DNA from: Somniosus microcephalus
Lineage: Eukaryota
DNA: 64,000 nt
Assembly (NCBI GenBank): GCA_052327205.1
Contig: CM126227.1
Location: 3,844,001-3,908,000 of the forward strand
Direction of reading: 5' to 3'
The position numbers were made by a program, and so were the translations under genes. This document shows, one piece after another, positions 4,006 through 62,495 of this stretch. The notes beneath the pieces are model-generated. The model had not been told where the DNA came from. It did not search any database and saw nothing but the letters and a program-made list of their open reading frames with translations. Position 1 is the first letter of the stretch, and the number at the start of each line of letters is the position of its first letter.

Positions 4006-4703
4006 GGCCTAGAAATTCAGTCGCGTTTGCGCCCACTTATGGGCTATAGAGTGGTTTGCGCCGGAAGTTTTTTCGCGCCCGAAATTCAGTTGGTCCGTAA
4101 CATCGACGTTAGCCGGTAGCGCTGCGCCGGCACCGATGACGTCATCGGTGTGCGCAGCGCCCCGGTTCCAATGCAATTCCGGTCCGACCGCCAAATTCAG
4201 TTGCGGCCGCCTCTCCCGTGGCGGCCGCAAACAGCGTTTGCAAAACGGTGCCTTGCAGCTCCGAGAGGCCGGCGCATAAAGGTGGAGGGGCGGCCGGCCG
4301 CTTTCCCGGCGGCCGCCTGGCTGCACCTCCCTCCCCGGACTCCTGCACCACCCCCCCGCGGCATTGGTGTGTCACTCCCGCGAGCCCGGCACTTCTCCGT
4401 GGTGCCGGGCTCATTTGCCGGGGGAATCCAGCGGCGATCTCACGGCTGCAGGCAGCTCCTCCTTAAGAGAAGGAGGAGGCCTGCAGTACCCCAGCCTGCC
4501 GCACCGCATCGGGTGCCGCAGCGGCAGCTGGACGCCTGAAACTGGCATTCTTCGCCCCAAACGAGGCGGCCAAACCCTCCAATAGCGCCCGCCTCCGTGT
4601 TGGGGCGGCGCAACTGAATTTCAGGCGGGCGCTACGGGAATCCGGCCGAGCGCTAAATTTCGGGCGCTAAAGACCTGGCGGGGCTATACCTAATTTCTAG
4701 GCC
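4006..4703 (+). mobile_element. GC-rich MITE copy E1 (PIF/Harbinger-like)
   Basis: Perfect 12-bp TIR GGCCTAGAAATT...AATTTCTAGGCC. The 3-bp TSD (CTT/CAT, one mismatch) restores the CR1 sequence CTTTCTCCC-CAT-ATCCC. Confidence 0.85.
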
Positions 4704-5937
4704 CATATCCCTTGATCCCTTTAGCCTTAAGAAATATATCTAACTCCTTCTTGAATATATTTAATGAATTGGCCTCAACTGCCTTCTGTGGTAGAGAATT
4801 CCACAGGTTTACCTCTCTCTGGGTGAAGAAGTTCCTCCTCATCTCAGTCCTAAATGGCTTACCCCTTATCCTTAGACTGTGACCCCTGGTTCTGGACTCC
4901 CCTGCCATCGGGAACATCCTTCCTGCATCTAGTCTGCCTAGTCCAGTTCGAATTTTATAAGTTTCAATGAGGTCCCCTCTCATTCTTCTAAACTCTAGCG
5001 AATATAAGCCTAATCGACCCAATCTCTCTTTTTACGTCATTCCTGCCATCCCAGGTATCAGTCTGGTGAATCTTCGCTGCACTCCCTCCATGGCAAGAAC
5101 ATCCTTCCTCAGATAAGGCGACCAAAACTGCACACAATACTCAAGGTGTGGCCTCACCAAGGCCCTGTACAACTGCAGCAAGACATCCTTGCTCCTGTAC
5201 TCGAATCCTCTCGCTATGAACGCCAGCATACCATTTGCCTTCTTAACCGCATGCTACACCTGCATGCTTACCTTCAGCGACTGGTGCACAGGGACACCCA
5301 GGTCTCGTTGCACTTCCCCTTTTCTCAATCTATTGCCGTTCAGATAAAAATCTGCCTTCCTGATTTTTCCACCAAAGTGGATAACCTCGCATTTATCCAC
5401 ATTATACTGCATCTGCCATGCATCTGCCCAATCGTCCAACCTGTCCAAATTGTACTGGAGTTTCTCTGCATCCTCCTCACAGCACACATGCCCACCCAGC
5501 TTTGTGTCGTCTGCAAACTTGGAGATATTTCATCTAGTTCCCTCGTCTAGATCATTAATATATATCGTGAATAACTGGGGTCCTAGCACCGATCCCTGCG
5601 GTACCCCACTAGTCACTCCCTGCCACTTGGAAAAAGACCCGTTTATTCCAACTCTTTGCTTCCTGTCTGCCAACCAGTTCTCTATCCAAGACAGTACCTT
5701 GTCCCCAATCCCGTGTGCTTTAACTTTGCACGCTAGTCTCTTATGCGGGACCTTATCGAAATGGCCTCCTACTGTGCCGTAAATTTCGATGATTCTGTGA
5801 CCGATATTTCAATGGTGACAAAAGTAAAAACAGCAGCCAGACGTATCACAGCTCTGAGTCTGATCCTTTAACCTCTCTCACCCAGTTAACAAGCCACTCC
5901 ATCAGCTTAAAACGTTGACAGTCTACAATACTTGTGC

Positions 5938-6455
5938 AAAATGTTTTTACGCAGAGTTGTTGTGATCTGGAATGCGCTGCCTGAAAGGGCGGTGGAGGCA
6001 GATTCAATAATAACTTTCAAAGGGAATTGGATAAATACTTGATAAAGTAACAGTTGCAGAGCTCTGGGGAAAGAGCAGGAGACTTGGACTGATCAGATAG
6101 AATCTTTCAAAGAGCCAGCACAAGCACGATGGGCCAAATGGCCTCCTTCTGTGCTGTGTGATTCTAAAATAGTTTCATGGCTATTCCAAAAAGCCTGCCT
6201 TAGTGACCAGTACTGCAAAACTCCATGCTGGAGAAGTAGGAGCTGATTATTGTGGAGAGACTGGAGAAGCTGGGATTGTTCTCCTTAGAGCAGAGAAGGT
6301 TAAGGGGAGATTTAATAGAGGTGTTCAAAATCATGAGAGGATTTGATAGAGTAGATAGAGAGAAACTGTTGCCATTGGCAAGACGGTCAGTAACCAGAGG
6401 ATACAGATTTAAGGTAATTGGCAAAAAAAACAGAGGGGCGATGAGGAAAAATATT
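5938..6455 (+). mobile_element. Two short CR1 3' fragments
   Basis: 5938-6165 is a terminal part with 3'UTR. 6250-6455 reads ERLEKLGLFSLEQRRLRGDL. Confidence 0.8.
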
Positions 6456-12857: not shown

Positions 12858-12999
12858 GTGCTTGCAATGCTCATCAGTCTGTCCTGGTTAAGGGGCTACG
12901 AGTCTCCCAGGAGAAGCTGGGAGGCTCCTCATTTCTACCTGTCAAACTTGTTTTACTCTCTGTTTCTTTACAACATCAAGGAGAAGCCAGAGGCTATCT

Positions 13000-15900
13000 T
13001 CTCTTAGGCAGTCTCTCGGAACCGAGGATGATTTGCTTCCACATTAAAAATGAGTTCTCAGGTGACTGATGAGTCCAATGCGGGACCTACAGTCTCTGTC
13101 ACAGGTGGGGCAGACGGTGGTTGAAGGGGTGGGTGGGGTGCTTGGGTTGACGTGCGCTCCTTGCACTGCCTGCGCTTGGCTTCCGCTTGCTCCTGGCGAA
13201 GAGACTCGAGGTGTTCAGCGCCTTCCCGGATGCTTCTCCTCCACTTTGTGCGGTCTTGGGCCAGGGATTCCCAGGTGTCGGTGGGGATGTTACACTTTTT
13301 CAAGGAAGCTTTGAGGGTGTCCTTGAAGCATTTCCTCTGCCCACCTGGGGCTCTCTTGTCATGTCGGAGCTCCGAGTAGAGCGCTTGTTTTGGGAGTCTC
13401 GTATCGGGCATGCGGACAATGTGACCCGTCCATCGGAGCTGAGCGAGCGTGGTCAAAGCTTTGATGCTGGGGATGTTGGCCTGAGCAAGAACACTGACAT
13501 TGGTGCGCCTATCCTGCCAATGGATTTGCAGGATCTTGCAGAGGCAGTGTTGGTGGTACCTCTCCAGTGCTTTGAGGTGCCTGCTATACATGGTCCATGT
13601 CTCTGAGGCATACAGCAGGGCGGGTATCACTGCTGCTCTGTAGACCATGAGCTTAGTGCCGGGTTTGAGATCCTGGTCTTCAAACACTCGGGTTTGAGAT
13701 CCTGGTCTTCAAACACTCTCTTCCTCAGGCGACCGAAGGCTGCACTGGCACACTGAAGGTGGTGTTGGACTTCGTCGTCAACGTCTGCCCTTGTTGACAG
13801 TAGGCTCCCGAGATATGGACAGTGGCCCACGTTGTCCAAGGCTTTGTCGTGGATTTTGATAATCGGGAGGCAGTACTGTGTGGCGGGGGCAGGTTGGTAG
13901 AGGACCTTTGTCTTACGGATGTTTAGTGTAAGGCCCATGCTCTCGTATGCTTTGGTGAAGGTGTTGACGATGGTTTGGAGTTCGATCTCCGAGTGAGCGC
14001 AGACGCAAGCATCGTCTGCATACTGTAATTCGATGACAGAGGATGGGACGACCTTAGATCTGGACTGGAGGCGATGGAGGTTGAACAGTTTCCCGTTTGT
14101 TCTGTAAATTAGCTCCACTCCAGCGGGGAGCTTACTGAGGGTGAGATGGAGCATTGCATCAAGGAAGATCGAGAAGAGCGTTGGTGCGATGACACAGCCT
14201 TGTTTGACCCCGGTTCATACGTGAATTGGGTCTGTGGTGGAACTATTGGTCAGGATCACGGCTTGCATGTCGTCGTGAAGCAGGTGGAGGATGGTGACAA
14301 ACTTTTGAGGGCAGCCGAATTTGAGGACACTCCATAATCCCTCACGGTTGACAGTGTCGAAGGCCTTTGTGAGATCAAATAAGGCCATGTACAGCGGTTG
14401 GTGCTGTTCCCTGCATTTCTCTTGTAATTGACTTGCGGTGAAGATCATGTCCATTGTGCCCCTTAGTGGGCGGAATCTGCATTGCGACTCTGGGAGGAGC
14501 TCTTTGGCCACTGGGAGAAGGTGATTGAGGAGGATTCTTGCGATGACTTTCCCTGTGGCAGACAGCAGGGAAACTCCTCTGTAATTACTGCAATTGGACT
14601 TGTCACTTTTCTTGAAGATGGTCACAATTACGGCGTCTCTGAGATCCCCTGGCATGCTCTCCTCCTTCCAAATAAGAGAAATTAGTTCATGTATTTGCAC
14701 CAGTAGTGCTTCTCCACCATGTTTTAGCGCCTCGACGGGGATTCCATCTGCTCCTGAGGCCTTGTTGTTCTTCAGTTGTCGGATGGCCCTTTCAACCTCA
14801 TGCCGGGCTGGGGTTGTGCTGAGGTGGTGACGGGTAGCATGCTGTGGGATGGAGTTGAGGACACTCGCGTCGAAGACAGAGTCGCGGTTAAGGAGCTCTT
14901 CGAAGTGCTCCTTCCAGCGGGCACTGACTGCCTCTCTGTCCTTGATGAGTACCTCTCCGTTCTTGGCCCGCAGTGGGAAAGGGCCTTGGGTGCTTGGGCC
15001 GTAGATGGTCTTGACTGCGCTAAAGAATCCACGCATGTCGTGGTTGTTGGCTAGCTGCTGGATCTCCTGCGCTTTCTCCACCCACCATCTGTTCTTTAGG
15101 TCGTGGGGTTTTTGTTGGACCTCGGCCTTCAGGCTTCTGTAGAGCTGCTTTCTTGCTCTCGAGTGCTGTTGCTGTTTCCAGATCAGGAATGCCTTGCGCT
15201 TGCGGCTTATTAGCTCCTGGATCTCCTGGTCGTTCTCGTCGAACCAGTCTTGGTGTTTCCTGGTCGAGTGACCGAGCGTCTCTTCACAGGTGCTGATTAT
15301 GGAGGCCTTGAGTGCAGACCAGGCGCTGTGGGCACTCTGTGTCTCTGCATCACTGAGAGTCATCAGGTTGTTTGTGAGGCGCAGGCTGAATAGGGCTTTC
15401 TTAGCGGGGTCTTTGAGTGCTCCAGTGTTAATTTTCCTGCGGCATTTTTTCTGTTGCCGCCGCTGTTTTGGGGCTACATTGATGGAGATGACAGAGCGGA
15501 TTAGGCGGTGGTCTGCCCAGCAGTCATCAGCTCCTGTCATGGCGCGGGTGATGCGGACGCCCTTGCGGTCCCTTGCTCGGACGATGACGTAGTCCAGCAG
15601 ATGCCAGTGCTTGGAGCGAGGGTGCTGCCATGAAGCCTTGTACTTGTCTCTCTGACGGAACAAGGTGTTGGTTATGACAAGGCCATGTTCTAAGCATTTT
15701 GTCAGGAGGAGGGTACCGTTGGAGTTGGCTTTCCCTACCCTCTCTCTGCCGATCACACCTCCCCAGAGGTCTGTGTCCTTTCCAACTCTGGCGTTAAAGT
15801 CGCCAAGGAGGATCAGCTTGTCGCCCGTTGGGACTCGGGACAGTGATTGTTCGAGGCTGGAGTAGAATTCCTCTTTGGTCTCGTCTGTGGTTTCCAGTGT

Positions 15901-16700
15901 TGGGGCGTACGCACTGATGACCGTAGCGCACTGGTTCTGGGCTAGGGTGAGCCGAAGAGTCATGAGGCGCTTGTTTATATCGCTAGGGGAGTCTCTGAGA
16001 CGCCCAACTAGTTCATTTTTTATGGCGAAGCCTACCCCATGGAGGCGGCATTCTTCTTCAGGTTTGCCTTTCCAGAAGAAGGTGTAGCCACCACTTTGCT
16101 CCTTGAGCTGGCCTTCCCCTGCCTGCCGGGTCTCACTTAGGGCAGCGGTGTCAATGTCGAAACGTCTGAGCTCCCGGGCAACTATAGCAGTACAGCGTTC
16201 CGGTCTGTCACTGTTGGGGTTGTCCATGAGGGTCCTGATGTTCCAGGTCCCGAACTTCATTTTAAAGGGTGGAAGATGCCTGTGCGTGAATTCTTCTAAC
16301 GTGGGGTGGCCGTTGCACACCAACTACCACACGGGCTTGACAGAGCAAGGTCTTGGTCCAATGGCAAGGGGATCCAAGACGATTGGAGACCAGGCTCTGC
16401 TACAACGGCCTAGCACACACACACAAACATACTGCGACTGTCCTCCTCCCTCCTTCCCACAGGTCCTCTCTGCCTGGGTTTCGTAGGATGCATTGTGGTC
16501 CTCCCGACCTCGCTGTTGGTCCGTGCCGCACCTTCCCTGGGCCCCGACCCCGCTGCTGGTCCATGCTGCGCCACTCCTGGGCCTTGACCTCGCTGCTGGG
16601 CTCGTCCTCGCTCCTGGGTCCCAGCCTCGGACATGAATGATGTTGTCTCTCACAGGATCAAATTAGCACTGATATTCTCGCGATCCCTGGCCGCGAGCTC
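13000..16700 (-). mobile_element. RTE-clade LINE, near full length, frameshifted
   Basis: APE endonuclease (KFGTWNIRTL, LLGDFNARVG, DHRL), RT (FDLTKAFDTV, QYADD) and RTE C-terminus (LRWTGHIVRM, WESLAQDRTKWR). The 5' boundary is approximate. Confidence 0.93.
13058..16323 (-). pseudogene. RTE endonuclease/reverse transcriptase split into three ORFs
   Basis: ORFs 14215-16323, 13627-14154 and 13058-13687. One break is caused by a tandem duplication of about 29 bp at 13660-13717. Confidence 0.9.
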
Positions 16701-18174: not shown

Positions 18175-19341
18175 TGTCAGCTGTGGCTCAGTAGGTAGCT
18201 TGGAGTCAGAAAGTTGTGGGTTCAAGTCCCACTCCAGAGATTTGAGCACAAAATCCAGGCTGACACTCCCAGTGCAGTACTGAGGGAGTGCTGCACTGTC
18301 GGAGGGGCAGTACTGAGGGAGCGCCGCACTGTTGGAGGGGCAGTACTGAGGGAGTGCTGCACTGTCGGAGGGGCAGTACTGAGGGAGTGTCGCACTGTCG
18401 GAGGGGCAGTACTGAGGGAGCGCTGCACTGTCAGAGGGGCAGTACTGAGGGAGCGCCGCACTGTCGGAGGGGCAATACTGAGGGAACGCCGCACTGTCGG
18501 AGGGTCAGTACTGAGGGAGCGCCGCACTGTCGGAGGGGCAGCACTGAGGGAGCGCCGCACTGTCGGAGGGGCAGTACTGAGGGAGCGCTGCACTGTCGGA
18601 GGGGCAGTACTGAGGGAGTGTCGCACTGTCGGAGGGGCAGTACTGAGGGGGCGCCGCACTGTTGGAGGGGCAGTACTGAGGGAGTGCCGCACTGTTGGAG
18701 GGGCAGTACTGAGGGAGCGCCGCACTGTCGGAGGGACAATACTGAGGGAGTGCCACACTGTCGGAGGGGCAGTACTGAGGGAGCACCGCACTGTCGGAGG
18801 GGCAGTACTGAGGGAGTGCCGCACTGTCGGAGGGGCAGTACTGAGGGAGTGCCGCACTGTCGGAGGGGCAGTACTGAGGGAGTGCCGCACTGTAGGAGGG
18901 GCAGTACTGAGGGAGCGCCGTACTGTCGAAGGGGCAGTACTGAGGGAGCGCGGCACTGTCGGAGGGGCAGTACTGAGGGGGCGCCGCACTGTCGGAGGGG
19001 CAGTACTGAGGGAGCGCTGCACTGTTGGAGGGGCAGTACTGAGGGAGCGCCGCACTGTCAGAGGGGCAGTACTGAGGGAGCGCCGCACTGTCGGAGGGAC
19101 AGTACTGAGGGAGCGCCGCACCGTCAGAGGGGCAGTACTGAGGGAGCGCCGCACTGTCGGAGGGACAGTACTGAGGGAGTGCAGCACTGTCGGAGGTGCC
19201 GTCTTTCGGATGAGACGTTAAACCGGGGGCCCGTCTGCCCTCTTAGGTGGACGTAAAAGATCTCACGGCATTATTTTGAAGAAAAGCAGGGAGTCCCAGT
19301 GTCCTGGCCAATATTTATCCCTCAATCAACATCACTAAAAC
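18175..19341 (+). mobile_element. tRNA-derived DeuSINE (SacSINE1-like) with internal 33-bp array at about 18275-19195
   Basis: Order is head with B box GGTTCAAGTCC, then about 28 units, then Deu-like core GTCTTTCGGATGAGACGTTAAACCG...GGTGGACGTAAAAGATC. Confidence 0.85.
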
Positions 19342-28074: not shown

Positions 28075-30814
28075 TGTATTGATTTCTTTGTGGGTTCAAT
28101 GACGAGACATTTATGAAAGAGAATGACTTTTAATCTAAAGCTTGTTCAACTCTTTATACAGCATTTACAGGAGACATCATGCTAGTGATGCATCTAGAAC
28201 GAAACTGAAACTAAACTGAACTGCCTTGCTTGTCTCTGTCACATGCCCTCTGCTGGTCAGGCACAAGCAATCAATACATGCAAACGTGCTGTTAAGGCAT
28301 CATAATCGAACAGGCAAATACCATCTCTATTTGCTGATATCATTACATCTCCTTTTCTTAAAACAAAAGTATTTTACTTTTAACTAACAACATGTTTTCT
28401 TTGTATTAATCTGCATTTTAACTGTAACACTTAATGAACTTACATTATCATTATCATGATCAAGGTTTGTTAACCTTGCTTTGTGTGTTCACATGAAATA
28501 TGTCAATACACTAGAACTTGAAGAAAGAATAAGATAACATTACTTCCTTCTATAACAATAGTCCTTAAATTTGCTCAATGAGTCTCTCAGGAGGCTTCAC
28601 GTGTCTTGAGGATTTTCTGATTGATTGTCCTTGAATCTGAGTTGTTGCCTCAGATGATGGTTTCTCAGCTGTGTGATCAGGTTGTTCAACAGTATCAGTC
28701 TCTTGACCTGCTGTGGCTGGTCCCATGAGAAGATCTCGACGATTTCTTCTCAGAACAGCACCCTCATCTGTCTGAATGGTGTATGATCTTGGTTGAACTT
28801 CACTCAGGACAGTTCCCTTCTGAGTCCATATGTTTGTTTTGTCTTTGAACCTTACTTGGTCACCAGTGTGGAGTTCAGGTAGGTTTTGTGTTCCTCTGTC
28901 ATAGTAGTACTTTTGCTTTTCTTTCTGTTGCTCCTTGAACTTCCTCACTTTCTCCCCCTCTTTTGTTTTCAGGAGGTTCTCCGGGATGGGTAGGTTTGAC
29001 CTTAGCATACGTCCCATAAGGAGTTGGGCTGGTGACATACCACACTCGAGCGGCGTTGTGCGGTATACAAGCATGCTCTGGTAGAAGTCAGTTCCACTGT
29101 CTTTTGCCTTGTACATCAGTCTTTTCACTGTGTTTGCGGGCTCTCCTGGGTCAACAGCTCTGGACAGCGTGTCTGCTGTATACATCAGCTTACCCGGTGT
29201 GTACGCAACATTCAGTTCATCATAGACTGTCTCTCCTTCGCTTTCCACAACGAGGACTCTCTTTACCAGGTTCAGTCTCTCACAGGCTTTTAAACCTGGT
29301 ATAGCCTGCACATCCTTTGGCACCACGATTAATGCTAGCGTGTGCTCTCTGTCCTTGTGTGTTACTTTGACAAAGCATCTTCCTTTCACTGGTATTTCAG
29401 TACCTGAGTATCCTGTCACTTTCACTTTTATTCCATGTATCTTTGGTCTGGGTCTAATTTTCTTAAAATCAGTCTCTGATATCACATTAACTTGTGCTCC
29501 AGTATCCAATTTAAATGGAATGTGTATGTCATTTACTTTTAGTGTCAACATCCAGTCTCTTTCTTCTTTTTTGTTTTCAGACACAACATCTACATTGAAC
29601 TCCTCTATCTCGCTTTCATCTACTGCATGGACCTTGCTTTGTTGCATTTGGTTCTTACAGCAACGGGCATAATGGTTGTTCTTGTTGCAACTATTGCATG
29701 TTTTACCATATGCTGGACACTTTCTTGGTGGATGCTGTGTACCGCATCGACTACATGACTTTCGATTGTCCCTTTCATTTTCGTTCGCTGGCCACGCCTC
29801 TTTTTTCACATTGACGCTCTTTTTGTTAAACGGTTTGTGTCCGTTCTTACTCACTGCATCCACGTTGTAGCTACTGTCACTGAACAGCTCCTTTGCCTGC
29901 AACTTCACAGTCTCTGTAGCCCTACACAGTGCTATGGCTTTTCCCAGGTCTAGATCTTGCTCTCTTAGCAGTCTTTCCCTTAGACCATTATCTGGAATAC
30001 CACACACCAGTCTGTCTTTTATCAGCGAGTCTGTCAGTCCCCCAAATTCACACGATTTGCTTCTGTTTCTCAGTTCAGTCACATACTGATCAATAGCCTC
30101 ACCCGTTTTCTGTACACGTGAAAAATCTGTGCCTCTCAAACATCACGTTACGTTTAGGTATGCAGTAGGCCTCAAACTGTTCCATTATTTTATCTAGTTT
30201 CATTTTGTCTCCATTAGCAGCAAATGTGAAGTTATTATACACCTCCAGCGCTTCATCACCCACGACATGTAAGAACAGTGACGATTTCTTTTTATTACTT
30301 TTCTCATCAGCTCCGATTGCCGCTAAATACAACCCCACACGTTGTTTGAATCTCCTCCAATTTTCAGCCACATTACCTGTCAACTGAAGCGTCGCCGGTG
30401 GGTGTAAACCTTCCATTTTTTACTTCGTTAGCTATTCTCTAATGGTAAGTAACGATGTTCTCTTTTGGCTTGCTAATATGTGGAGAGCTGATTTAACTTC
30501 AGATTTTTCCTCTTCATCTCTTTCAATCACTTCTGACACCATGTATTGATTTCTTTGTGGGTTCAATGACGAGACATTTATGAAAGAGAATGACTTTTAA
30601 TCTAAAGCTTGTTCAACTCTTTATACAGCATTTACAGGAGACATCATGCTAGTGATGCATCTAGAACGAAACTGAAACTAAACTGAACTGCCTTGCTTGT
30701 CTCTGTCACATGCCCTCTGCTGGTCAGGCACAAGCAATCAATACATGCAAACATGCTGTTAAGGCATCATAATCGAACAGGCAAATACCATCTCAATTTG
30801 CTGATATCATTACA
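28075..30814 (-). mobile_element. Gypsy-type LTR retrotransposon, internally deleted, young
   Basis: 273-bp LTRs at 28075-28347 and 30542-30814 (TG...CA, two differences seen). 5-bp TSD ATCAC. PBS TGGTGTCAGAAGTG, complementary to the tRNA-Leu 3' end. PPT AAGAAAAGGAGA. Confidence 0.96.
28565..30416 (-). pseudogene. gag-protease fused to remnants of RNase H and the integrase C-terminus; one frameshift near 30115
   Basis: gag (NWRRFKQR, IKDRLVCG, CPAYGKTCNSCNKNNHYARCC), protease (FKLDTGA), RNase H tail (YTPGK..ADTLSR), IN tail (YRTTP..SPAQLLMGR..RSY..LRRNR). No RT YxDD motif. Confidence 0.9.
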
Positions 30815-34500: not shown

Positions 34501-37500
34501 GTTCAGTGTGTGTCCGCGGGCTGTGTTCAGTGTGTGTCCGCGGGCTGTGTTCACGGTGTGTCCGCGGGCTGTGTTCAGTGTGTGTCCGCGGGCTGTGTTC
34601 ACTGTGTGTCCGCGGGCTGTGTTCACTGTGTGTCCGCGGGTTGTGGTCAGTGTGTGTCTGCGGGCTGTGCTCAGTGTGTGTCCGCGGGCTGTGCTCAGTG
34701 TGTGTCCGCGGGCTGTGTTCAGTGTGTGTCCGCGGGCTGTGTTCACTGTGTGTCCGCGGGCTGGTGTTCAGTGTGCGTCCGCGGGCTGTGCTCAGTGTGT
34801 GTCCGCGGGCTGTTGTCAGTGTGTGTCCCCGGGCTGTGTTCAGTGTGTGTCCGCGGGCTGTGGTCAGTGTGTGTCCGCGGACTGTGCTCAGTGTGTGTCT
34901 GCGGGCTGTGCTCAGTGTGTGTCTGCGGGCTGTGGTTCAGTGTGTGTCCGCGGGCTGTGTTCAGTGTGTGTCCGCGGGCTGTGTTCACTGTGTGTCCGCG
35001 GGCTGGTGTTCAGTGTGCGTCCGCGGGCTGTGCTCAGTGTGTGTCCGCGGGCTGTTGTCAGTGTGTGTCCCCGGGCTGTGTTCAGTGTGTGTCCGCGGGC
35101 TGTGCTCAGTGTGTGTCCGCGGGCTGTGCTCAGTGTGTGTCCACGGGCTGTGGTCAGTGTGTGTCCGCGGGCTGTGCTCAATGTGTGTCCGCGGGCTGTG
35201 GTCAGTGTGTGTCCGCGGGCTGTGCTCAGTGTGTGTCTGCGGGCTGTGCTCAGTGTGTGTCTGCGGGCTGTGGTTCAGTGTGTGTCCGCGGGCTGTGCTT
35301 AGTGTGTGTCCGCGGGCTGTGGTCAGTGTGTGTCCGCGGGCTGTGTTCAGTGTGTGTCCGCGGGCTGTGGTCAGTGTGTGTCCGCGGGCTGTGGTCAGTG
35401 TGTGTCCGCGGGCTGTGTTCAGTGTGTGTCCGCGGGCTGTGGTCAGTGTGTGTCCGCGGGCTGTGTTCAGTGTGTGTCCGCGGGCTGTGGTCAGTGTGTG
35501 CCCGCGGGCTGTGGTCAGTGTGTGTCCGCGGGCTGTGTTCAGTGTGTGTCCGCGGGCTGTGGTCAGTGTGTGTCCACGGGCTGTGGTCAGTGTGTGTCCG
35601 CGGGCTGTGGTCAGTGTGCGTCCGCGGGCTGTGTTCAGTGTGTGTCCGCGGGCTGTGGTCAGTGTGTGTCCACGGGCTGTGGTCAGTGTGTGTCCGCGGG
35701 CTGTGGTCAGTGTGTGTCCGCGGGCTGTGGTCAGTGTGCGTCCGCGGGCTGTGGTCAGTGTGCGTCCGCGGGCTGTGTTCAGTGTGTGTCCGCGGGCTGG
35801 TGTTCAGTGTGTGTCCGCGGGCTGTGGTCAGAGTGTGTCCGCGGGCTGTGGTCAGTGTGTGTCCGCGGGCTGTGCTCAGTGTGTGTCCGCGGGCTGTGGT
35901 CAGTGTGTGTCCGCGGGCTGTGGTCAGTGTGTGTCCGCGGGCTGTGTTCAGTGTGTGTCCGCGGGCTGTGCTCAGTGTGTGTCCGCGGGCTGTGGTCAGT
36001 GTGTGTCCGCGGGCTGTGGTCAGTGTGTGTCCGCGGGCTGTGTTCAGTGTGTGTCCGCGGGCTGTGGTCAGTGTGTGTCCGCGGGCTGTGTTCAGTGTGT
36101 GTCCGCGGGCTGGTGTTCAGTGTGTGTCCGCGGGCTGTGGTCAGTGTGTGTCCGCGGGCTGTGCTCAGTGTGTGTCCGCGGGCTGTGTTCAGTGTGTGTC
36201 CGCGGGCTGCGTTCAGTGTGTGTCCGCGGGCTGTGGTCAGTGTGTGTCCGCGGGCTGTGTTCAGTGTGTGTCCGCGGGCTGTGGTCAGTGTCCGCGGGCT
36301 GTGGTCAGTGTGTGTCCGCGGGCTGTGGTCAGTGTGTGTCCGCGGGCTGTGTTCAGTGTGTGTCCGCGGGCTGTGGTCAGTGTGTGTCCGCGGGCTGTGG
36401 TCAGTGTGTGTCCGCGGGCTGTGTTCAGTGTGTGTCCGCGGGCTGTGGTCAGTGTGTGTCCGCGGGCTGTGTTCAGTGTGTGTCCGCGGGCTGTGGTCAG
36501 TGTGTGCCCACGGGCTGTGGTCAGTGTGTGTCCGCGGGCTGTGTTCAGTGTGTGTCCGCGGGCTGTGGTCAGTGTGTGTCCACGGGCTGTGGTCAGTGTG
36601 TGTCCGCGGGCTGTGGTCAGTGTGCGTCCGCGGGCTGTGTTCAGTGTGTGTCCACGGGCTGTGGTCAGTGTGTGTCCGCGGGCTGTGGTCAGTGTGAGTC
36701 CGCGGGCTGTGGTCAGTGTGCGTCCGCGGGCTGTGGTCAGTGTGCGTCCGCGGGCTGTGTTCAGTGTGTGTCCGCGGGCTGGTGTTCAGTGTGTGTCCGC
36801 GGGCTGTGGTCAGAGTGTGTCCGCGGGCTGGTGTTCAGTGTGTGTCTGCGGGCTGGTGTTCAGTGTGTGTCTGCGGGCTGTGTTCAGTGTGTGTCCGCGG
36901 GCTGTGGTCAGTGTGTGTCCGCGGGCTGGTGTTCAGTGTGTGTCCGCGGGCTGTGTTCAGTGTGTGTCCGCGGGCTGTGTTCAGTGTGTGTCCGCGGGCT
37001 GTGTTCACGGTGTGTCCGCGGGCTGTGTTCAGTGTGTGTCCGCGGGCTGTGTTCACTGTGTGTCCGCGGGCTGTGTTCACTGTGTGTCCGCGGGTTGTGG
37101 TCAGTGTGTGTCTGCGGGCTGTGCTCAGTGTGTGTCCGCGGGCTGTGCTCAGTGTGTGTCCGCGGGCTGTGTTCAGTGTGTGTCCGCGGGCTGTGTTCAC
37201 TGTGTGTCCGCGGGCTGGTGTTCAGTGTGCGTCCGCGGGCTGTGCTCAGTGTGTGTCCGCGGGCTGTTGTCAGTGTGTGTCCCCGGGCTGTGTTCAGTGT
37301 GTGTTCGCGGGCTGTGGTCAGTGTGTGTCCGCGGACTGTGCTCAGTGTGTGTCTGCGGGCTGTGCTCAGTGTGTGTCTGCGGGCTGTGGTTCAGTGTGTG
37401 TCCGCGGGCTGTGTTCAGTGTGTGTCCGCGGGCTGTGGTCAGTGTGCGTCCGCGGGCTGTGGTCAGTGTGCGTCCGCGGGCTGTGTTCAGTGTGTGTCCG

Positions 37501-38490
37501 CGGGCTGGTGTTCAGTGTGTGTCCGCGGGCTGTGGTCAGAGTGTGTCCGCGGGCTGTGGTCAGTGTGTGTCCGCGGGCTGTGCTCAGTGTGTGTCCGCGG
37601 GCTGTGGTCAGTGTGTGTCCGCGGGCTGTGGTCAGTGTGTGTCCGCGGGCTGTGTTCAGTGTGTGTCCGCGGGCTGTGCTCAGTGTGTGTCCGCGGGCTG
37701 TGGTCAGTGTGTGTCCGCGGGCTGTGGTCAGTGTGTGTCCGCGGGCTGTGTTCAGTGTGTGTCCGCGGGCTGTGGTCAGTGTGTGTCCGCGGGCTGTGTT
37801 CAGTGTGTGTCCGCGGGCTGGTGTTCAGTGTGTGTCCGCGGGCTGTGGTCAGTGTGTGTCCGCGGGCTGTGCTCAGTGTGTGTCCGCGGGCTGTGTTCAG
37901 TGTGTGTCCGCGGGCTGCGTTCAGTGTGTGTCCGCGGGCTGTGGTCAGTGTGTGTCCGCGGGCTGTGGTCAGTGTCCGCGGGCTGTGGTCAGTGTGTGTC
38001 CGCGGGCTGTGGTCAGTGTGTGTCCGCGGGCTGTGTTCAGTGTGTGTCCGCGGGCTGTGCTCAGTGTGTGTCCGCGGGCTGTGGTCAGTGTGTGTCCGCG
38101 GGCTGTGGTCAGTGTGTGTCCGCGGGCTGTGTTCAGTTGTGTCCGCGGGCTGTGGTCAGTGTGTGTCCGCGGGCTGTGGTCAGTGTGTGTCCGCGGGCTG
38201 TGGTCAGTGTGTGTCCGCGGGCTGTGTTCAATGTGTGTCCGCGGGCTGTGGTCAGTGTGTGTCCACGGGCTGTGGTCAGTGTGTGTCCGCGGGCTGTGTT
38301 CAGTGTGTGTCCACGGGCTGTGTTCAATGTGTGTCCGCGGGCTGTGGTCAGTGTGTGTCCACGGGCTGTGTTCAATGTGTGTCCGCGGGCTGTGCTCAGT
38401 GTGTGTCCACGGGCTGTGTTCAATGTGTGTCCGCGGGCTGTGCTCAGTGTGTGTCCGCGGGCTGTGCTCAGTGTGTGTCCGCGGGGTGCT
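31520..38490. repeat. 7-kb satellite of 24/25-bp units (GTCCGCGGGCTGTGKTCAGTGTGT)n with higher-order blocks
   Basis: About 285 units. Variant blocks recur at offsets of about 530, 1978 and 2454 bp. Confidence 0.98.
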
Positions 38491-43143: not shown

Positions 43144-43144
43144 G

Positions 43145-43684: not shown

Positions 43685-44830
43685 GAAAAGAAAGATTTGC
43701 ATTTCTATAGCGCCTTTCACAACCTCAGGACGTCTCAAAGCACTTTACCGCCAATGAAGTGCTTTTTGAAGTGCAGTCACTGTTGTAATGTAGGAAACGC
43801 AGCAGCAATTTGCACCCACAAACAGCAATGTGATAATGACCAGATAATCTGTTTTTTTTTGGTAATGTTGAGTGAGGAAAAGTTATTGGCCAGCACACCG
43901 GGGATAACTCCCCTGCTCTTTGTCGAAATAGTGCCACGGAATCTTTTACGTCCACCTGAGAGAGTAGACAAGGCCTCGGTTTAATGTCTCTCTGAAAGAT
44001 GGCACCTCTGACAGTGCGGCGCTCCCTCAGTGCTGCCCCTCCGACAGTGCGGCGCTCCCTCATTACTGCCCCTCCGACAGTGCGGCGCTCCCTCAGTACT
44101 GCCCCTCCGACAGTGCAGCGCTCCCTCAGTACTGCTCCTCCGACAGTGCAGCGCTCCGACAGTGCGGCGCTCCCTCAGTACTGCCCCTCCGACAGTGCGG
44201 CGCTCCCTCAGTACCGCCCCTCCGACAGTGCGGCGCTCCCTCAGTACTGCCCCACCGACAGTGCAGCGCTCCCTCAGTACTGCCCCTCCGACAGTTCCGC
44301 GCTCCCTCCGTACTGCCCCTCCGACAGTGCTGCGCTCCCTCAGTACTGCCCCTCTGACAATGTGGCACTCCCTCAGTACTGCCCCGCCGATAGTGCGGCG
44401 CTCCCTCAGTACCGCCCCTCCGACAGTACGGCGCTCCCTCAGTACTGCCCCTCCGACAGTTCCGCGCTCCCTCAGTACTGCCCCTCCGACAGTGCGGCAC
44501 TCCCTCAGTACTGCCCCTCCGACAGTGCGGCGCTCCCTCAGTACTGCCCCTCCGACAGTGCAGCGCTCCCTCAGTACTGCCCCTCCGACAGTGCGGTGCT
44601 CCCTCAGTACTGCCCCTCCGACAGTGCGGTGCTCTCTCAGTACTGCCCCTCGACAGTGCGGCGCTCCCTCAGTACTGCCCCTCCGACAGTGCGGCGCTCC
44701 CTCAGTACTGCCCCTCCGACAGTGCGGCGCTCCCTCAGTACTGCCCCTCGACAGTGCGGCGCTCCCTCAGTACTGCACTAGGAGTGTCAGCCTAGATTTT
44801 TTTTTGTGTCCAAGTCTCTGGAGTGGGAGG
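43685..44830 (-). mobile_element. DeuSINE with internal 33-bp array at about 44003-44778
   Basis: Tail, core, about 23 units, then GCACTAGGAGTGTCAGCC and a partial head. Confidence 0.87.
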
Positions 44831-50604: not shown

Positions 50605-52256
50605 TTATGTATCCAAGTTTGCTGATGATACAAAGCTAGGTGGGACAGTAAGCTGTGGGGAGAACACAAAGGCCTAGAAATTGGGTTGGGGCGCCAAAGT
50701 GGCGCAAAAGTCGGCGGAGCGCAGGATTTAGCGCAGCGATCGGAGTGATACCGATCGCCAGAAATTCAGTTTCAGTGCCCCTCGAGGGAGACGGGGCGAG
50801 GCTCGAGGCGCTCCGCGTCCCTCTTAGGGCGCTGAAACTGATTATCGCAGCGCAACGTGCCGCAGCGCCACATGCTGCGGCACGGCACGCTGCGGTACTG
50901 CAGGCCTTCCTCCCACTGTTAAGGGGGAGGTGCCTGCAACAGCGCGATCCCCGCTTGCGAGTGCCGGCAAATGAGCCCGGCACCAAGGAGAAGTGCCGGG
51001 CTCTCGGGAAACAGCTGGCAATGCCGCGGGGGGGGGGGGGTTAGGAGGCCGGGGACGGAGGTGCTGGCAGGCGGCCGCCGAAAAAGCGGCCGCCCCGCAC
51101 CTCCACCTTAACTTGTGCCGCTGCCGGCACAGTAAGGCCCCGTTAACCGGGCGCGGGTAGCGAGCGGCGCAACTGCGGCGTTCGCTACCAAATATCGCGA
51201 ACGGGGCACGAATGGGGCGCTGCGCACACCGATGACGTCATCGGTGGCGGCGCAGCGCAAATGCCTAACGCCACCATTAGCGCCCCTACTGAATATCGCC
51301 GGAGACGCAGCCAGTGGCGCTACAGCCACTGACTGCCTCTTTAGGCACTAACAGGTGGCGCTACTCACCCAATTTCTCCCCCAAAGAGTCTGCGAAGGGA
51401 TATAGATAGACTGAGTGAGTGGGCAGTAAGGTGGCAGGTGGAGTATAATGTGGGGAAATGTGAGGTTATTCACTTTGGTAGGAAGAATAGAAAAACAGAA
51501 TATTTTTTAAATGGTGAGAAACTTTCAAATGTTGGCGTTCAGAGAGATTTGGGTGTCCTTGTGCAAGAAACACAGAAAGCTAGCCTGCAGGTACAGCAAG
51601 CAATAAGGAAGGCAAATGGCATGTTGGCCTTTATTGCAAGGGGGTTGGAGTATAAGAGTAAGGAAGTCTTGCTCCAATTGTACAGGGCCTTGGTGAGACC
51701 ACACCTGGAGTACTGTGCACAGTTCTGGTCTCCTTATCTGAGGAAGGATATACTTGCCTTGGAGGCGGTGCAACGAAGGTTCACTAGATTAATTCCTGGG
51801 ATGAGAGGGCTGTCCTATGATGAGAGATTGTGTAGAATGGGCCTAATCTGGAGTTTAGGAGAATGAGAGGTGATCTCATCGAAACATACAAGATTCTGAA
51901 GGGGATTGACAGGGTAGATGCTGAGAGGTTGTTTCCCCTGGTTGGAGTGTCTAGAACTAGGGGGCCTAGTCTCAGGATAAGGGGTCGGCCATTTAAGACT
52001 GAGATGAGGAGGAATTTTTTCACTCAGAGGGTTGTGAATCTTTGGAATTCTCTGCCTCAGCGGGCTGTGGATGCTGAGTCTTTGAGTATATTCAAGGCTG
52101 AGATCGTTAGATTTTTGGACTCTAGGGGAATCAAGGGATACGGAGATTGGGTGGGAAAGTGGAGTTGAGGTCGATGATCAGCCATGATCTTACTGAATGG
52201 TGGAGCAGGCTCGGGAGGCCGTATGGCTGACTCCTGCTCCTAATTCTTATGTTCTT
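50605..52256 (+). mobile_element. CR1 fragment (from FADD to 3'UTR) interrupted by MITE E2
   Basis: AAGTTTGCTGATGATACAAAG (KFADDTK), then ORFs 51438-51866 and 51863-52168. Confidence 0.92.
50671..51382 (-). mobile_element. GC-rich MITE copy E2
   Basis: AAA|GGCCTAGAAATTGGG...CCCAATTTCTCCCCC|AAA. Interior is reverse-complement homologous to E1 and E3. Confidence 0.85.
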
Positions 52257-52895: not shown

Positions 52896-54700
52896 CAATA
52901 CAATACAATACAATACAAATCGCTTTATTGGCATGATAAGGTACATCTTATGTTGCCAAAGCATCAAAATACATTTATGGTTGAACACATAAACGCGGTT
53001 CCATTCATACAGTGTATAAACAGGTATATCCCTGAGTTTATAAATATACATTCGCCTTGTTTATATATACTCTTGTCTTAGTTTACTGGTTGTCCCTCTG
53101 TTCATGGCAAGCTGTAACATAGTGTGCCGCCAGTGTTACACAGCTTCTCTCCTCCCCCAGTAGGAATGGGAGTTTTTGGTTGTCAGTCAGATTTCTGAAT
53201 TCAGGGCATATTTGTGAGAATTTTTGGTAGAAATTCTCTCTGATGCCCTGATATTTTCCACAGGCTGTGAGGAAGTGCATCTCTGTCTCAACTACTCCCT
53301 GACTGCAGTGAGAGCATATCCTGTCTTCTCTTGGCAGCCTGGTCTGCCTGTGTCTGCCTTTTTCGATCGCTAGGCTATGTTCGCTAAGTCTGTACCTTGT
53401 CAAGGTTCTTCTCAGTTTGTTATCCTTTACCATGGTCAGGTAATCAGCTGTGTTGTATTGTCTGTTTAGGGCCAAGTAGCAATTGAGTTTGCTTTGGGTT
53501 TTTGTTGTTTCTGCCCAATATGACAGATATTTTTCCTTTTGCTTAGCGACGATTGTGTTGGGTCGAATTCTTTGTGTTACCCTGTCACTGTCCTGGGACT
53601 GGTTATTGTTAGTATTGTTATTAGTTACTTTATTGAGTCCCAGGACTAGTTGACTGAGGGTATTCTTCTTTATGGTCAGCTCTTGGCATTTCAGGGCGTC
53701 GTAGTGATAGCATTGGGGGTTGCTCATTTGTAGGTGATTCCAAAATTTGGTGGCTCTTTTTTGGATAGTGATTATTAATGGGTATTGGCCTAGTTCCGCC
53801 CTGCATGCGTTGTTTACTGTTTTCCTTTGAGTCCGGAGGATACTTTTACAGAATTCCGCATGTAGGATCTCAATTGGGTGTTTGTCCCATTTTGCAAAAT
53901 CTTGTTGTGTTAGTGGTCCCCAGACCTCACTGCCATAGAGTGCAATTGGTTCAATTACTGATTTGAAAATTTTGAGCCAAATGCTAATTGGGATTTCTAT
54001 TTGGATTGATTTTTTGATGGCATAGAAAGCCCTTCTTGCTTTCTCTTTCAGTTCATTCACAGCCAGTTTGAAGTTTCCCGTAGAACTGATTTTTAAGCCC
54101 AAGTATGTGTAGTGAGTGGTTTGTTCAATTTTGGTTGTTCCTACTGTGAAATTTATTGTGGGTCCATGTTGTTTGGATCTTTGCTGGAACACAAGGACTT
54201 TGGTTTTTTGGGGATTTATTGTCAGGGCCCAAGTCTGGCAGTACGACTCCAGCAGGTCCAGGTTCTGCTGTAGACCCTCCTTAGTTGGTGACAGCAGAAC
54301 CAGGTCGTCGGCATAGAGGAGGAATTTAACCTTGGATTCATATAGGGTGAGGCCGGGTGCTGTAGATTGTTCAAGTAGTTTTGCCAATCCATTAATGTAA
54401 ATATTAAAGAGTGTCGGTGAGATTGGCGAGCCCTGCGTCACCACCCGCCCCTGTGGGAAGTATTTTGTTTGTTTGTCTCCAATTTTAACTGCACATTTAT
54501 TGTTTGTATACATTGATTTAATTACATCATATGTTTTCCCTCCTACCCCGCTTTCGATAAGTTTCAGGAATAAACCGTCATGCCAGATGGAGTCGAAAGC
54601 CTTCTGGAAATCTACAAAGCATGCGTAGATTTTGCTTTTGTTATGGTGAACGTGTTTGTCAATTAGGGTCTGTAGGGTGAAGATATGATCGGATGTTCTG
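52896..54700 (-). mobile_element. RTE-X-like non-LTR retrotransposon, 5'-truncated
   Basis: (TATTG)n tail preceded by AATAAA, with an RT ORF upstream. Confidence 0.85.
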
Positions 54701-54744
54701 ACGTCCTCTGACATCATCTGACGTCCTGTGAGCAAATCTGGCAC
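53083..54744 (-). CDS. Reverse transcriptase plus C-terminal CCHC zinc finger (retrotransposon ORF2, N-terminally truncated)
   Basis: CFVDFQKAFDS, QGSPISPTLFN, LLYADD, YLG and RICSHC...HFLTAC in an uninterrupted 553-aa ORF. The first ~15 codons are probably flank. Confidence 0.85.
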   Translation of the reverse strand: MPDLLTGRQMMSEDVRTSDHIFTLQTLIDKHVHHNKSKIYACFVDFQKAFDSIWHDGLFLKLIESGVGGKTYDVIKSMYTNNKCAVKIGDKQTKYFPQGRVVTQGSPISPTLFNIYINGLAKLLEQSTAPGLTLYESKVKFLLYADDLVLLSPTKEGLQQNLDLLESYCQTWALTINPQKTKVLVFQQRSKQHGPTINFTVGTTKIEQTTHYTYLGLKISSTGNFKLAVNELKEKARRAFYAIKKSIQIEIPISIWLKIFKSVIEPIALYGSEVWGPLTQQDFAKWDKHPIEILHAEFCKSILRTQRKTVNNACRAELGQYPLIITIQKRATKFWNHLQMSNPQCYHYDALKCQELTIKKNTLSQLVLGLNKVTNNNTNNNQSQDSDRVTQRIRPNTIVAKQKEKYLSYWAETTKTQSKLNCYLALNRQYNTADYLTMVKDNKLRRTLTRYRLSEHSLAIEKGRHRQTRLPREDRICSHCSQGVVETEMHFLTACGKYQGIRENFYQKFSQICPEFRNLTDNQKLPFLLGEERSCVTLAAHYVTACHEQRDNQ

Positions 54745-55100
54745 ACTTCCCTGATTGTCTTAAATATCCCAGGAACCAAGATAAAAAAACACAAACAAAT
54801 CACAGTCTCTGAGCACATCTTGCCCAGAACTCTTCCCAAGCTCTACTACAACCGAGGAGTGGAATGCTTCAGTGTGCGAAAGGTGATTGGAGCTGGTTTC
54901 CTAAGCTGGGGATTGAGGTCACAGAGATCCACTAATGCAATGCATTCGCTGTAAGCTGTGCATTCAAACTTAGCGCTAGATTAGCAACAAAATCTGAATG
55001 ACACTAGAATCTTAGCAAAGCCGGATTTTGTCGATTTAAAACCCTCTGAGGGATTGGAGGGATGAAGCTGGGTTATCAGGGCTGTGTTTAGCCTCCGCAG

Positions 55101-56273
55101 CAGGGTTGCCAACTCTGGCTGGACGTATTCCTGGAGGCTTCATCACATGACCTGCTGCCCCGCCCCTACGCTCCCGCCATTGGTCACCCGACATGGCCAT
55201 CCTTGCAGGGCCCCGCCTTCCCACGGCCAATCGGAAAGTGAACTGACTCTTTGATATGACAGTGATTCCACTTCGAAAGTTCTTCATTGGCTGTAAAGCG
55301 CTTTGGGACGCCCTGAGATCGTGAAAGGCGCTATAGAAATGCAAGTCCTTCTTTTTCATTATCCGACTGGATGATTTTGACAGCCATTTTATCCCATCTT
55401 AGATGTTTGTAAAACTAATGAACAAAAGTGATCAAAGAATTATTTTTTTTAAAACACTTTGGCCTAGAAATTCATTAAGGCGCCCAGTTAACGCCTAAAG
55501 AGTGATTTTGCGCCAAAAATGAGTTTGCGCAGATATTCAGCAGAGCGGTATTGGCGGCGGTAGCCGTTAGCACTGCGCCGGCACCGATGACGTCATCGGT
55601 GTGCGCAGTGCCCCGGTACCGCCCAGAAACCAGCCCGATCCCCATATTTAGTTGCGGCCGCCTCCTCTGAAGCGGCCGCAAACAGCGACCAGAAAACGGG
55701 GCCGTGCTGAATCCTTAGTGGGGCGCTTTAAAGGGGAAGGTGCGGCCGGCCGCTTTTTCGGCGGCCGCCTGCCCGCACCTTCTTCCCCAGCCTCCTCCAC
55801 CCGCCCCCCCGCGGCATTGCCGGCTGGTTTGCGGGAGCCCGGCACTTCTCCGTTGTGCCGGGCTCTTTTGCCGGCACTCGCGATCGGGGCTCCGGCTGTT
55901 GCAGGCACCTCCCCCTTAAGAGGAGGAGGCCTGCAGTACCACAGCCTGCCGCTCCGCAGCGGCTGGCGCAGCGGCGCCAAGAGCGCTGATATTCAGTGTC
56001 AGCGCCCCAAGCGGAGACGGGCACACCCTGGTATAGCGCCCGGTTCCGAATTGGGGCGCTAACAATGAATATCTGACGATCGCTATAGGCTTCCCGCCCA
56101 GCGCTAACTTCTGGGCGCTAGCCAGCTGGCGGGGCCATAGTGAATTTCTAGGCCTTTTTTTTTAATGCCCTCTCTATGATTTTTCTCCCCGGGTGTTGCT
56201 CCCAGCAGTGTCCTGGAGATTAATCTTTCATTCCTGGAGACTCCAGGCCAATCCTGGAGAGTTGGCGACCCTA
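55101..56273. mobile_element. hAT-like non-autonomous element hosting a SINE tail and MITE E3
   Basis: TIR CAGGGTTGCCAACTCT...AGAGTTGGCGACCCTA with subterminal TCCTGGAG/CTCCAGG repeats. No 8-bp TSD preserved. Confidence 0.65.
55461..56154 (+). mobile_element. GC-rich MITE copy E3
   Basis: TTT|GGCCTAGAAATTCA...TGAATTTCTAGGCC|TTT, a perfect 14-bp TIR. Confidence 0.9.
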
Positions 56274-60094: not shown

Positions 60095-60282
60095 TGTAAG
60101 CTGACATGAAGAGACAATTCGCTGCGGTTTTCCACAAATTTCAATCCGCACAAACCCTGGGCACCGGATTCGACACAGGCAAGAGCTTTGGAATGTTGAA
60201 AGCTGCAATGATCTCTCTGCTTTCCCTTTGCTGGGTCAGTCACTGGTTCACAGCTCTCACCCAGTTCATTCCCTGTTAGGAA

Positions 60283-61430
60283 CACAGGAATAGGAGTAGG
60301 CCATTAAATACTAATAACTTGAAGGAGAAAAAAATCGCAGGAATATGGGGAAAGAGCCGGGGAGTGGGACTGACTGGATTGCTTATCAAAAGAGCCAGTG
60401 CAGAATCGATGGGCCGAATGGCCTCCTTCTGTGCTGTACTACTCTATGATTCTATGATTCAGACCCTCGAGCCTGTTCACAGAATCATGAAATGATGCAC
60501 AGAATGTGCCGGCTCTTTGAAAGAGCTCTCCAATTCGTCCCACTCCCCCCGGTTCTTTCCCCGTAGACCTGTAACTTCTCCCCTTCAAGTATTTCTCCAA
60601 TTCCCTTTGAAAGTTACTGTTGAATCTGCTTCCATCGCCCTTTCAGACAGCGCGTTCCAGATCACAACAACTCGCTGAATAAAAAACTGTTTCCGCATGT
60701 CACCTCTGGTTCTTTTGCCAATCACTTTAAATACATGTCCTCTGGTTACCGACCCTCCTGCCACTGAAAACAGTTTCTCCTTATTTACTCTATCAAAACC
60801 CTTCATGATTTTAAACACCTCTATCAAATCTCTTCTGAACCTTTCTCTGCTCTAAGGAGAACAACCCCAGCTTCTCCAGTCTCTCCACATAACTGAAGTT
60901 CCTCATCCCTGGAACCATTCTAGTCAATCTCCTCTGCACCCTCTCCAAGGCCTTGACATCCTTCCTAAAGTGTGGTGCCCAGAATTGACTTTTTAACAAC
61001 CTTCTCAACTTGTCCTGCCACCTTCAGTGATTTGTGTACATACACCCCCAGGTCTCTCTGTTCCTGCACCCCCTTTAAAATTGTACCATTTAGTTTGTAT
61101 TGCCTCTCCTCATTCTTCCTACCAAAAAGCATCACTTCACACTTCGCTGTGTTAAATTTCATCTGCCACGTGTCTGCCCATTTCACCAGTCTGTCTGTGT
61201 CCTCCTGAAGCCTGTTACTAGCCTCCTCATTGTTTATTACATTTCTGAGTTTCGTATCATCGGCAAGCTTTGAAATGATGCCCTGTATACCCAAGTCCAG
61301 GTCATTAATATACATCAAAAAGAGCAGTGGTCCTAATACTGACCCCTGGGGGACACCACTGTATACTTCCCTCCAGTCTGAAAAACAACCGTTCACCTCT
61401 ACTCTCTGCTCTCTGTCCTTTGACCAATTC
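60283..61430 (-). mobile_element. CR1 fragments (RT to 3'UTR), with short nested CR1 tails
   Basis: [13 protein letters not shown]...LADDTK in ORF 60965-61441, plus downstream ORFs. Confidence 0.88.
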
Positions 61431-62495
61431 TGTTCCGCCATTCAATCAGATCATGCACGATCTGTATCTTAACTCCATCTACCCGCCTTGGTTCCGTAAC
61501 CCTTAATACCCTTGCCGACAAAAAATCTATCAATCTCAGTTTTGAAATTTTCAATTGACCTACTGTCAACAGCTTTTTGGGGGAGAGAGTTCCAGATTTC
61601 CGCTCCCCTTTGTGTGAAGAAGTGCTTCCTGACATCACCCCTGAACAACCTGGCTCTAATTTTAAGGTTATCCCCCACTGTTCTGGACCCCCCATTAGAG
61701 GAAATAGTTTGGGGTAAAAATTGTGGGGCGCTACCTTCGCTGGGGCGCTAATTTTAACGCCCTGAAAAAGTTAGCGCCCCCGCGGCCGATTTTCCCAGGT
61801 AGCGCCCCGAGAGGGAGAACGGGTGCTACTGGAAGCGGCCCGCGTCCCTCTTGGGGTGCTGCGAGCCAATATCACGACATGCCGCAGCGCATCACGTCGC
61901 GCTGTGGTACTGCAGGCCTTCCTCCCCTTATTAAAGGGGAGGGGCCTGGCGCAGCGCGTCCCGGCACCCAGCTGGGCCACCAGGGATCGGGAGTGCTGGC
62001 AAACAAGCCCGACATTCAAGAGGAGGGCCGGGCTCACAGAAAGCAGCCGGTACCCCGTGGGGGGGCTTCACGGGGGCCAGGGACAGCAACGGGGGCAGGT
62101 GCTGGCAGGCGGCCAACAACAAAAATGACCGCCCGCCATCTCCCCTTTAACTAGCGCCGCCCCGGCCGCAGTTAGGCCCCCCCTGACCCCGGCGGACATA
62201 GCGTCCGGTGGTAAGTCGGGGGGCGCCACCCAATATTACAGCTGGGGCGCGAGCGGGGCGCTGCGCATGGCGATGCCAACGGTTAGCGCCGCCACTAACC
62301 TCCCGCTGAATTTCGCGGGAGGCGTTAGCGGCACCGCGCCCAGGCGCTAGTTGATTTGCACCCCATTAGCGCCCTCTCAGGGCGCTAACGGGAGGTGCAA
62401 ATCAACCAAATTAAGCCCCCTTTCTCTCCATCTACCCTATCAACTCCTTTAATCATCTTAAACACCTCAATTAGATCAGCCCTTAATCTTCTATA
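61430..62495 (-). mobile_element. CR1 3' fragment interrupted by MITE E4
   Basis: ORF 61469-61678. The CR1 sequence GAAATAG-TTT-CTCTC is split by the insertion. Confidence 0.85.
61711..62420 (-). mobile_element. GC-rich MITE copy E4 (divergent)
   Basis: TTT|GGGGTAAAAATTG...CAAATTAAGCCCCC|TTT. Shares GGTACTGCAGGCCTTCCTCCC and other blocks with E2. Confidence 0.78.

Follow-up and report, generated by a model that had tools for sequence, protein, structure and literature searches.

Within a window of 64,000 nucleotides from Somniosus microcephalus (assembly GCA_052327205.1, contig CM126227.1, positions 3,844,001 to 3,908,000 of the forward strand), four transposable elements of the miniature inverted-repeat type (MITEs), here called E1 to E4 (Table 1), represent an abundant set of PIF/Harbinger elements in which about one insertion in five carries unequal copies of its target site duplication (TSD), which is 3 bp long. 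This mismatch matters more than the family itself, and it makes the cut-and-join chemistry of Harbinger elements testable from sequence. With a probability of roughly 55%, we think that the mismatches stem from three-nucleotide overhangs of the donor TSD that the excised element would keep and that would be partly fixed at the new site. A literature search returned no description of donor-derived or frequent mismatch in Harbinger TSDs, nor of this family, most subscription papers and Repbase lying outside its reach.

Unequal target site duplications and their spectrum

TSDs were read from assembled sequence, and all genome-wide searches were made in one genome of 6.45 Gb (G000). Among copies in clusters of at least four members, 36 of 177 had unequal TSDs, compared with 9.1 expected from non-CpG divergence; after removal of two loci with end damage (L065 and L087), 34 of 175 were mismatched. 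The excess was largest in the youngest subfamily, the E1 cluster, where 12 of 40 TSD pairs were unequal against 0.83 expected at a cluster divergence of 0.35%. The sequence-only reading had taken the flanks of all four window copies as 3-bp TSDs. This stands for E2, E3, and E4, but the CTT/CAT pair of E1, whose target was CAT, is one instance of the family-wide mismatch and not an ordinary TSD. Left out of these counts were three duplicates (L053, L225, and L249), an inner duplicate end in L284, six loci whose right end was not found (L079, L223, L236, L285, L291, and L317), and one three-member cluster with perfect TSDs.

Because these elements prefer a palindromic target (see below), they form hot spots inside other repeats, among them H1 (target AAT; 462 and 229 junctions on its two sides) and H3 (target TTT; 334 and 273 junctions). 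At H1, 23 of 88 unselected pairs were unequal, whereas invariant flank sites vary by about 1% (P = 3e-8), and the mismatched pairs retained the target triplet on one side. At H3, pairing by hand from the coordinates among the matches listed (100 per side) gave 10 unequal pairs in 52, and a scripted count on fetched loci gave 3 in 25. The H1 count leaves out four probable duplicates and three loci that had been chosen because they were variant, and the H3 count leaves out two false internal pairings (L520 and L525). Target polymorphisms, which account for CAT/CAT at H1 and for most TTG at H3, were not scored as mismatches, and an asymmetry by element end, first suggested, was not upheld at H1 (14 versus 9; P = 0.40). 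Insertions at H1 are biased in orientation (62 plus versus 26 minus). Nine H1 junctions with near-identical subterminal letters, spaced at about 0.3 Mb between 135.9 and 145.1 Mb of C4 in G000, are probably a large segmental array and not independent insertions.

The mismatches also differ in kind from ordinary mutations. Transitions made up 9 of 31 TSD changes, compared with 95 of 184 neutral singletons (P = 0.02), leaving a spectrum rich in transversions, and changes of more than one base accounted for 5 of 22 and 7 of 34 events, where independent errors would give 4%. At H3, two triple changes (TTT to AAA and AAA to CTG) occurred among the matches listed; in the same set A/T swaps formed 10 of 15 changes, as in the W-rich donor pool, and T>C was absent. 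Such copies are easily lost from view: pipelines that require identical 3-bp flanks, such as the one in the methods of PMC13668399, would drop about one-fifth of real insertions and miss the effect.

Origin of the mismatches

The carry-over that we favor would proceed as follows. A Myb protein would bind the element ends, the transposase would make staggered cuts inside both TSDs, and the excised element would depart with complementary three-nucleotide overhangs of the donor TSD, in the manner of piggyBac. If the ends then joined a target selected by its palindromic flanks and not by its central triplet, the carried overhang would lie opposite a different triplet and, given the loose core, mispair. 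In most insertions, trimming of the overhang and filling of the gap would yield a perfect TSD; in about one in five, some or all of the overhang would be ligated and so become fixed at one side.

Excision of the rice element mPing has been proposed to involve staggered cuts within the TSDs that leave the donor with 5' overhangs (PMC4561436), and piggyBac takes along a TTAA overhang from its donor (PMC7351741). The mPing/Pong Tourist MITEs resemble the shark elements in superfamily, in their GGCC-initiated terminal inverted repeat (TIR), in the 3-bp TSD, and in the proposed staggered cut. However, mPing targets TTA/TAA, and the mPing tests in the accessible text address how the donor is repaired and how targets are chosen, and do not deal with letters of the donor at new junctions (PMC4561436). 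The likeness to piggyBac would extend to excised ends that bear an overhang from the donor, to seamless repair of the donor, and to mutations at non-canonical sites (PMC7351741), although piggyBac belongs to another superfamily and works with one protein and a strict 4-bp TTAA. It is because of this strictness that piggyBac mismatches are rare, whereas the loose core of the shark target would make them routine.

Several observations weigh against carry-over. Replacement of the whole triplet as the sole process can be rejected, since it predicts 70% multi-base differences and 21 to 23% were seen, so that carry-over has to assume that retention is partial or that ligation is selective. At H1, G stands at position 2 in 7 of 22 events, although only 11% of donors have G there, an excess that is better fitted by A>G misinsertion, and the H1 variants are lopsided by target side (18 left versus 5 right; P = 0.01), while those at H3 are even (5:5). 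Three clusters show no mismatch excess (0/12, 2/15, and 1/10), and a set sampled by pattern instead of similarity has a smaller one (16/92 versus about 5); the top-hit sets, being picked by similarity, have a lowered expected mismatch count. The TSDs of nearest relatives fail to account for the variants in a small sample of star-like subfamilies. Moreover, the ends of the complete autonomous copy L328 (see below) outscore shuffled sequence in alignments with only 5 of 8 MITE ends, from which it follows that the exact parents were not found.

The strongest competitor, which we nevertheless regard as rather unlikely, keeps the same elements and attributes the mismatches to error-prone host filling of the three-nucleotide integration gaps by a translesion or gap-repair polymerase. 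Pol eta, for example, has a WA>WG habit and makes clustered errors. In line with this account, single-base events dominate at H1 (17 of 22), which also weighs against carry-over; the change seen most often there is from AAT to AGT (5 of 22); and in the general set several transition pairs that were left unresolved are compatible with A>G after A or T. However, the AAA strand of H3 shows no AGA among the 100 junctions listed, where ATA (twice), AAT (twice), ATG, TCA, and CTG appear instead; none of the 14 TTT-side variants among the matches listed is a T>C change; triple substitutions are present; and the error rate would have to be near 4% per base. Error-prone filling covers the AGT class but neither the H3 spectrum nor the triple changes. 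It could coexist with carry-over.

Less probable still is that the mismatches arose after insertion or in the assembly, through ordinary mutation, repeated abortive transposase nicking of resident TSDs, or consensus errors at junctions. Resident ends do remain substrates for an abundant transposase (a genome search with profile PF13359 returned 96,621 first-look DDE candidates), some cases are end damage (L065 and L087), and the mismatched junctions are known from assembly sequence. Against this, the excess peaks in the least diverged subfamily, the spectrum is unlike the neutral one, and the neighboring letters of flank and TIR show no damage in 52 of 52 H3 pairs, a set constructed to have them intact.

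If carry-over is true, the mismatches would form a genome-wide in vivo record of Harbinger cleavage chemistry, which for this superfamily has so far been inferred mostly from plant excision assays, and would offer a means of linking daughter copies to their donors. A further prediction from mismatched TSDs is that excision of these copies changes bases or leaves footprints. Only tentatively would we generalize that vertebrate Harbinger transposases move DNA in piggyBac style with donor-TSD overhangs; since the lineage studied here recognizes the palindromic flanks regardless of the central triplet, about one in five insertions might then leave donor bases at the new site.

Target site, subfamilies, and autonomous partner

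The TSD length of 3 bp proposed from the window holds beyond it: junctions were exactly duplicated at n = 3 in 80 of 107 copies and at n = 4 to 8 in 0 of 107, ruling out other lengths. From 144 perfect TSD pairs, the plurality site is the palindrome TTTAAAACAC-NNN-GTGTTTTAAA, with a core triplet that is NWN in 78% and CWG in 5%. The anticipated departure from TWA targets was borne out, TWA making up 4% of the 288 TSD readings from these pairs; Pangu-type ANT accounts for 16% of readings and NuwaI-type CWG for 5%, which leaves the family outside the TSD definitions of both groups. The target flanks agree with the site AAACACCWGGTCTTT (AAACAC/GTCTTT) of zebrafish Harbinger3_DR at 7.3 of 12 letters, compared with 2.9 in shifted controls. 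The family resembles Harbinger3_DR/Harbinger3N_DR further in its two-protein system, 3-bp TSD, and long palindromic target (PMC3016246 and PMC2836001). In contrast to Harbinger3_DR, the shark core is a loose NWN, and about 20% of the shark TSD pairs are mismatched, of which no report was seen for Harbinger3_DR in the available parts of the same two papers. With the NuwaI group the family shares DDE and Myb/SANT open reading frames (ORFs), TIRs from 12 bp, a size of about 4.4 kb, and occurrence in animals, but NuwaI elements by definition have CWG TSDs and usually GGG-initiated TIRs (PMC4482050), whereas most shark TIRs start with GGCC. As far as groups can be compared by TSD, the MITE family therefore belongs to the PHIS superfamily but falls outside the TWA, CWG, and ANT definitions, and it works like Harbinger3_DR. 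According to PMC9179366, Harbingers were not detected in the elephant shark, and other cartilaginous fish are flagged as untested.

Each of E1 to E4 heads its own subfamily, and the suggestion of many young sub-lineages proved sound: the nearest genomic copies are 99 to 100% identical for E1 (40 of its 40 top matches), 97 to 98% for E2, 94 to 97% for E3, and 82 to 86% for E4. First-look hits, which are candidates and not copy numbers, amount to 3,162, 3,837, 5,966, and 13,587, respectively, in keeping with the high copy number proposed, and the 34-nucleotide left end of E1 alone has 1,435 exact matches. A sample of 92 paired copies from chromosome C1 resolved into several clusters with at least five different right ends, and there one exact 34-nucleotide left end was coupled to at least five right ends (L223 to L320). 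Together with the unequal TIR pair of E2, which recurs on the autonomous copies L323, L325, and L329, this sequence pattern indicates end swapping between subfamilies. All 30 bins of the E1 region are covered by contigs from runs that bear the labels of three organisms; the family is therefore shared with relatives.

The sequence-only reading had called for an autonomous partner with a DDE transposase, a Myb/SANT ORF, and the same TIRs, and such elements exist. The top PF13359 matches (family A) were rejected as parents, their end alignments being at background with only TIR style in common; L131, L134, and L158 carry independent insertions of E-type MITEs 3' of the family-A transposase. A second family (B) was discovered beside an E4-type copy (L120/L171). 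Locus L171 combines a DDE_Tnp_4 domain (E = 1e-40) with a convergent Myb_DNA-bind_5 exon (E = 7e-8), and among 12 extended relatives L328 is complete, with 4,163 bp, an open transposase frame of 380 amino acids, TIRs that are both GGCCTAGAAATT and identical to those of E1 and E3, and the TSD AGT/AGT. The left 280 bp of family B scored 151 against the left end of E4 (shuffle maximum, 32) and 103 against that of E2 (shuffle maximum, 41), and the right end of a relative scored 72 against that of E1 (shuffle maximum, 36), with 21 of 22 terminal bases identical. The left 280 bp of E4 are thus homologous to the transposase-promoter end of family B, and the MITEs retain this end up to a TATA-like TTAAAGGGG on the transposase side. 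Since end identity is only about 66 to 74% over gapped alignments, family-B elements are cousins of the direct parents. Nevertheless, a two-gene family-B element is likely the partner of the MITEs, and shared TIRs, target, and hot spots make it likely that its proteins mobilize them in trans. MITEs adjoin autonomous Harbinger ends in L171 (8367 to 9051), L325, and L326; in L171, one base lies between the E4-type MITE and family B, with outer flanks ATA/ATA.

With these results, E1 to E4 are non-autonomous PIF/Harbinger elements from high-copy subfamilies, an expected kind of repeat and the class originally proposed, having a 3-bp TSD, short G-initiated TIRs, no coding capacity, and a two-gene partner with the same TIRs.

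CpG decay and the four copies in the window

The four copies have a GC content of 0.63 to 0.65 and a CpG observed/expected ratio of 0.86 to 1.03, exceeding the formal CpG-island thresholds (GC > 0.5, ratio > 0.6, at least 200 bp), and their richness had raised the idea that they are mobile CpG islands and evade methylation in the germ line. We consider this highly improbable and reject it, leaving the frequent, insertion-linked TSD mismatch as the part worth following. Measured against the majority sequence of each cluster, C>T/G>A changes at CpG reached 1.7 to 4.0%, compared with 0.2 to 1.0% at other C/G sites, a ratio of 3.0 to 11.1 in 9 of 9 clusters. The older E4 set gave 16.1% versus 3.0% (about 5 times), with a mean of 56 CpGs per aligned copy against 84 in its majority sequence, and family B gave ratios of 8.8 at its end and 10.2 in its coding region. 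Because CpG transitions run 3 to 11 times faster, the copies appear to decay as methylated DNA does. The island idea can draw on CpG ratios near 1 across lineages 25 to 38% apart, on promoter-like motifs kept in the MITEs, and on Harbinger MITEs co-opted as enhancers in Xenopus (PMC12676858), but besides the decay, RNA over E1 is shallow (depth 2 to 86, versus more than 1,000 on the CR1 tail) and comes from both strands. A minority of copies may act as islands; for the bulk, the data contradict it. Their island-like richness is explained by youth and by descent from CpG-rich transposon ends, the ratio in L328 being 0.98 and 0.89 at the ends versus 0.4 to 0.7 inside. Comparable CpG density occurs in a 24-bp satellite of 289 units and in 33-bp arrays of the window (31522 to 38485, 1 to 998, 18274 to 19196, and 44005 to 44776).

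Table 1. MITE copies and associated features, in window coordinates
Feature	Position	Strand	Description
E1 Harbinger MITE	4006..4703	+	698 bp; both TIRs GGCCTAGAAATT; youngest subfamily
E2 MITE	50671..51382	-	712 bp; TIRs unequal, left GGGGGAGAAATT, right GGCCTAGAAATT; TSD AAA/AAA
E3 MITE	55461..56154	+	694 bp; internal deletion of ~17 bp relative to its own 710-bp subfamily; TSD TTT/TTT
E4 MITE	61711..62420	-	710 bp; oldest subfamily; TSD TTT/TTT
Left TSD copy of E1, CTT	4003..4005	+	Altered copy; pre-insertion triplet CAT
Right TSD copy of E1, CAT	4704..4706	+	Equals the target triplet
Perfect 20-bp palindrome with TGACGTCA core	4131..4150	.	In E1; also present in E2 and E3
Host repeat of E3, bounded by TIRs	55101..56273	.	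Contains a tail like that of a short interspersed element (SINE)

The boundaries originally assigned to the four copies were accurate, and no ORF of at least 150 amino acids lies inside any of them, as their description as non-coding had implied. They align end to end at 62 to 75% pairwise identity; BLAST of the window revealed no further copy, and an Rfam search with the elements gave no match, ruling out a structured RNA identity. Short, G-initiated TIRs of about 12 bp are common to all, but the proposed consensus GG-n-GAAATT does not describe the TIRs of E4 (GGGGGCTTAATT/GGGGTAAAAATT), the two ends of E2 are unequal, and the subterminal motif said to be repeated, GAAATTCAG, occurs exactly only 3, 1, 0, and 1 times in E1, E2, E3, and E4. 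The palindrome with the TGACGTCA core is kept across subfamilies 25 to 29% apart, and the core itself is found again at the left end of family B; from its letters, the core looks CRE-like.

The claim that E2 splits a CR1 is confirmed by a CR1-type reverse transcriptase (RT) frame that it interrupts; E1 lies 3' of such a frame, and E4 lies about 280 bp upstream of one. The host of E3 may be hAT-like, as first proposed; no matching 8-bp TSD was found around its TIR pair (55101 and 56273). Empty paralogous sites carry CAT for E1 in 22 of 25 cases and, in a second count, 25 of 33 (CR1-type sites), AAA for E2 in 11 of 23, and TTT for E4 in 6 of 12; the same comparison yielded no resolved site for E3. 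Contigs of three public runs contain joints that skip 702 nucleotides at E1, most simply read as empty paralogues. The CR1 tail that holds E1 contains another insertion, about 233 bp long (3749 to 3982), as seen from skipped joints in the contigs of three runs and in RNA reads. Elsewhere, the window holds an aspartyl-protease ORF of long terminal repeat type and two sets of RT-bearing ORFs (28565 to 30142, 13058 to 16323, and 53083 to 54759).

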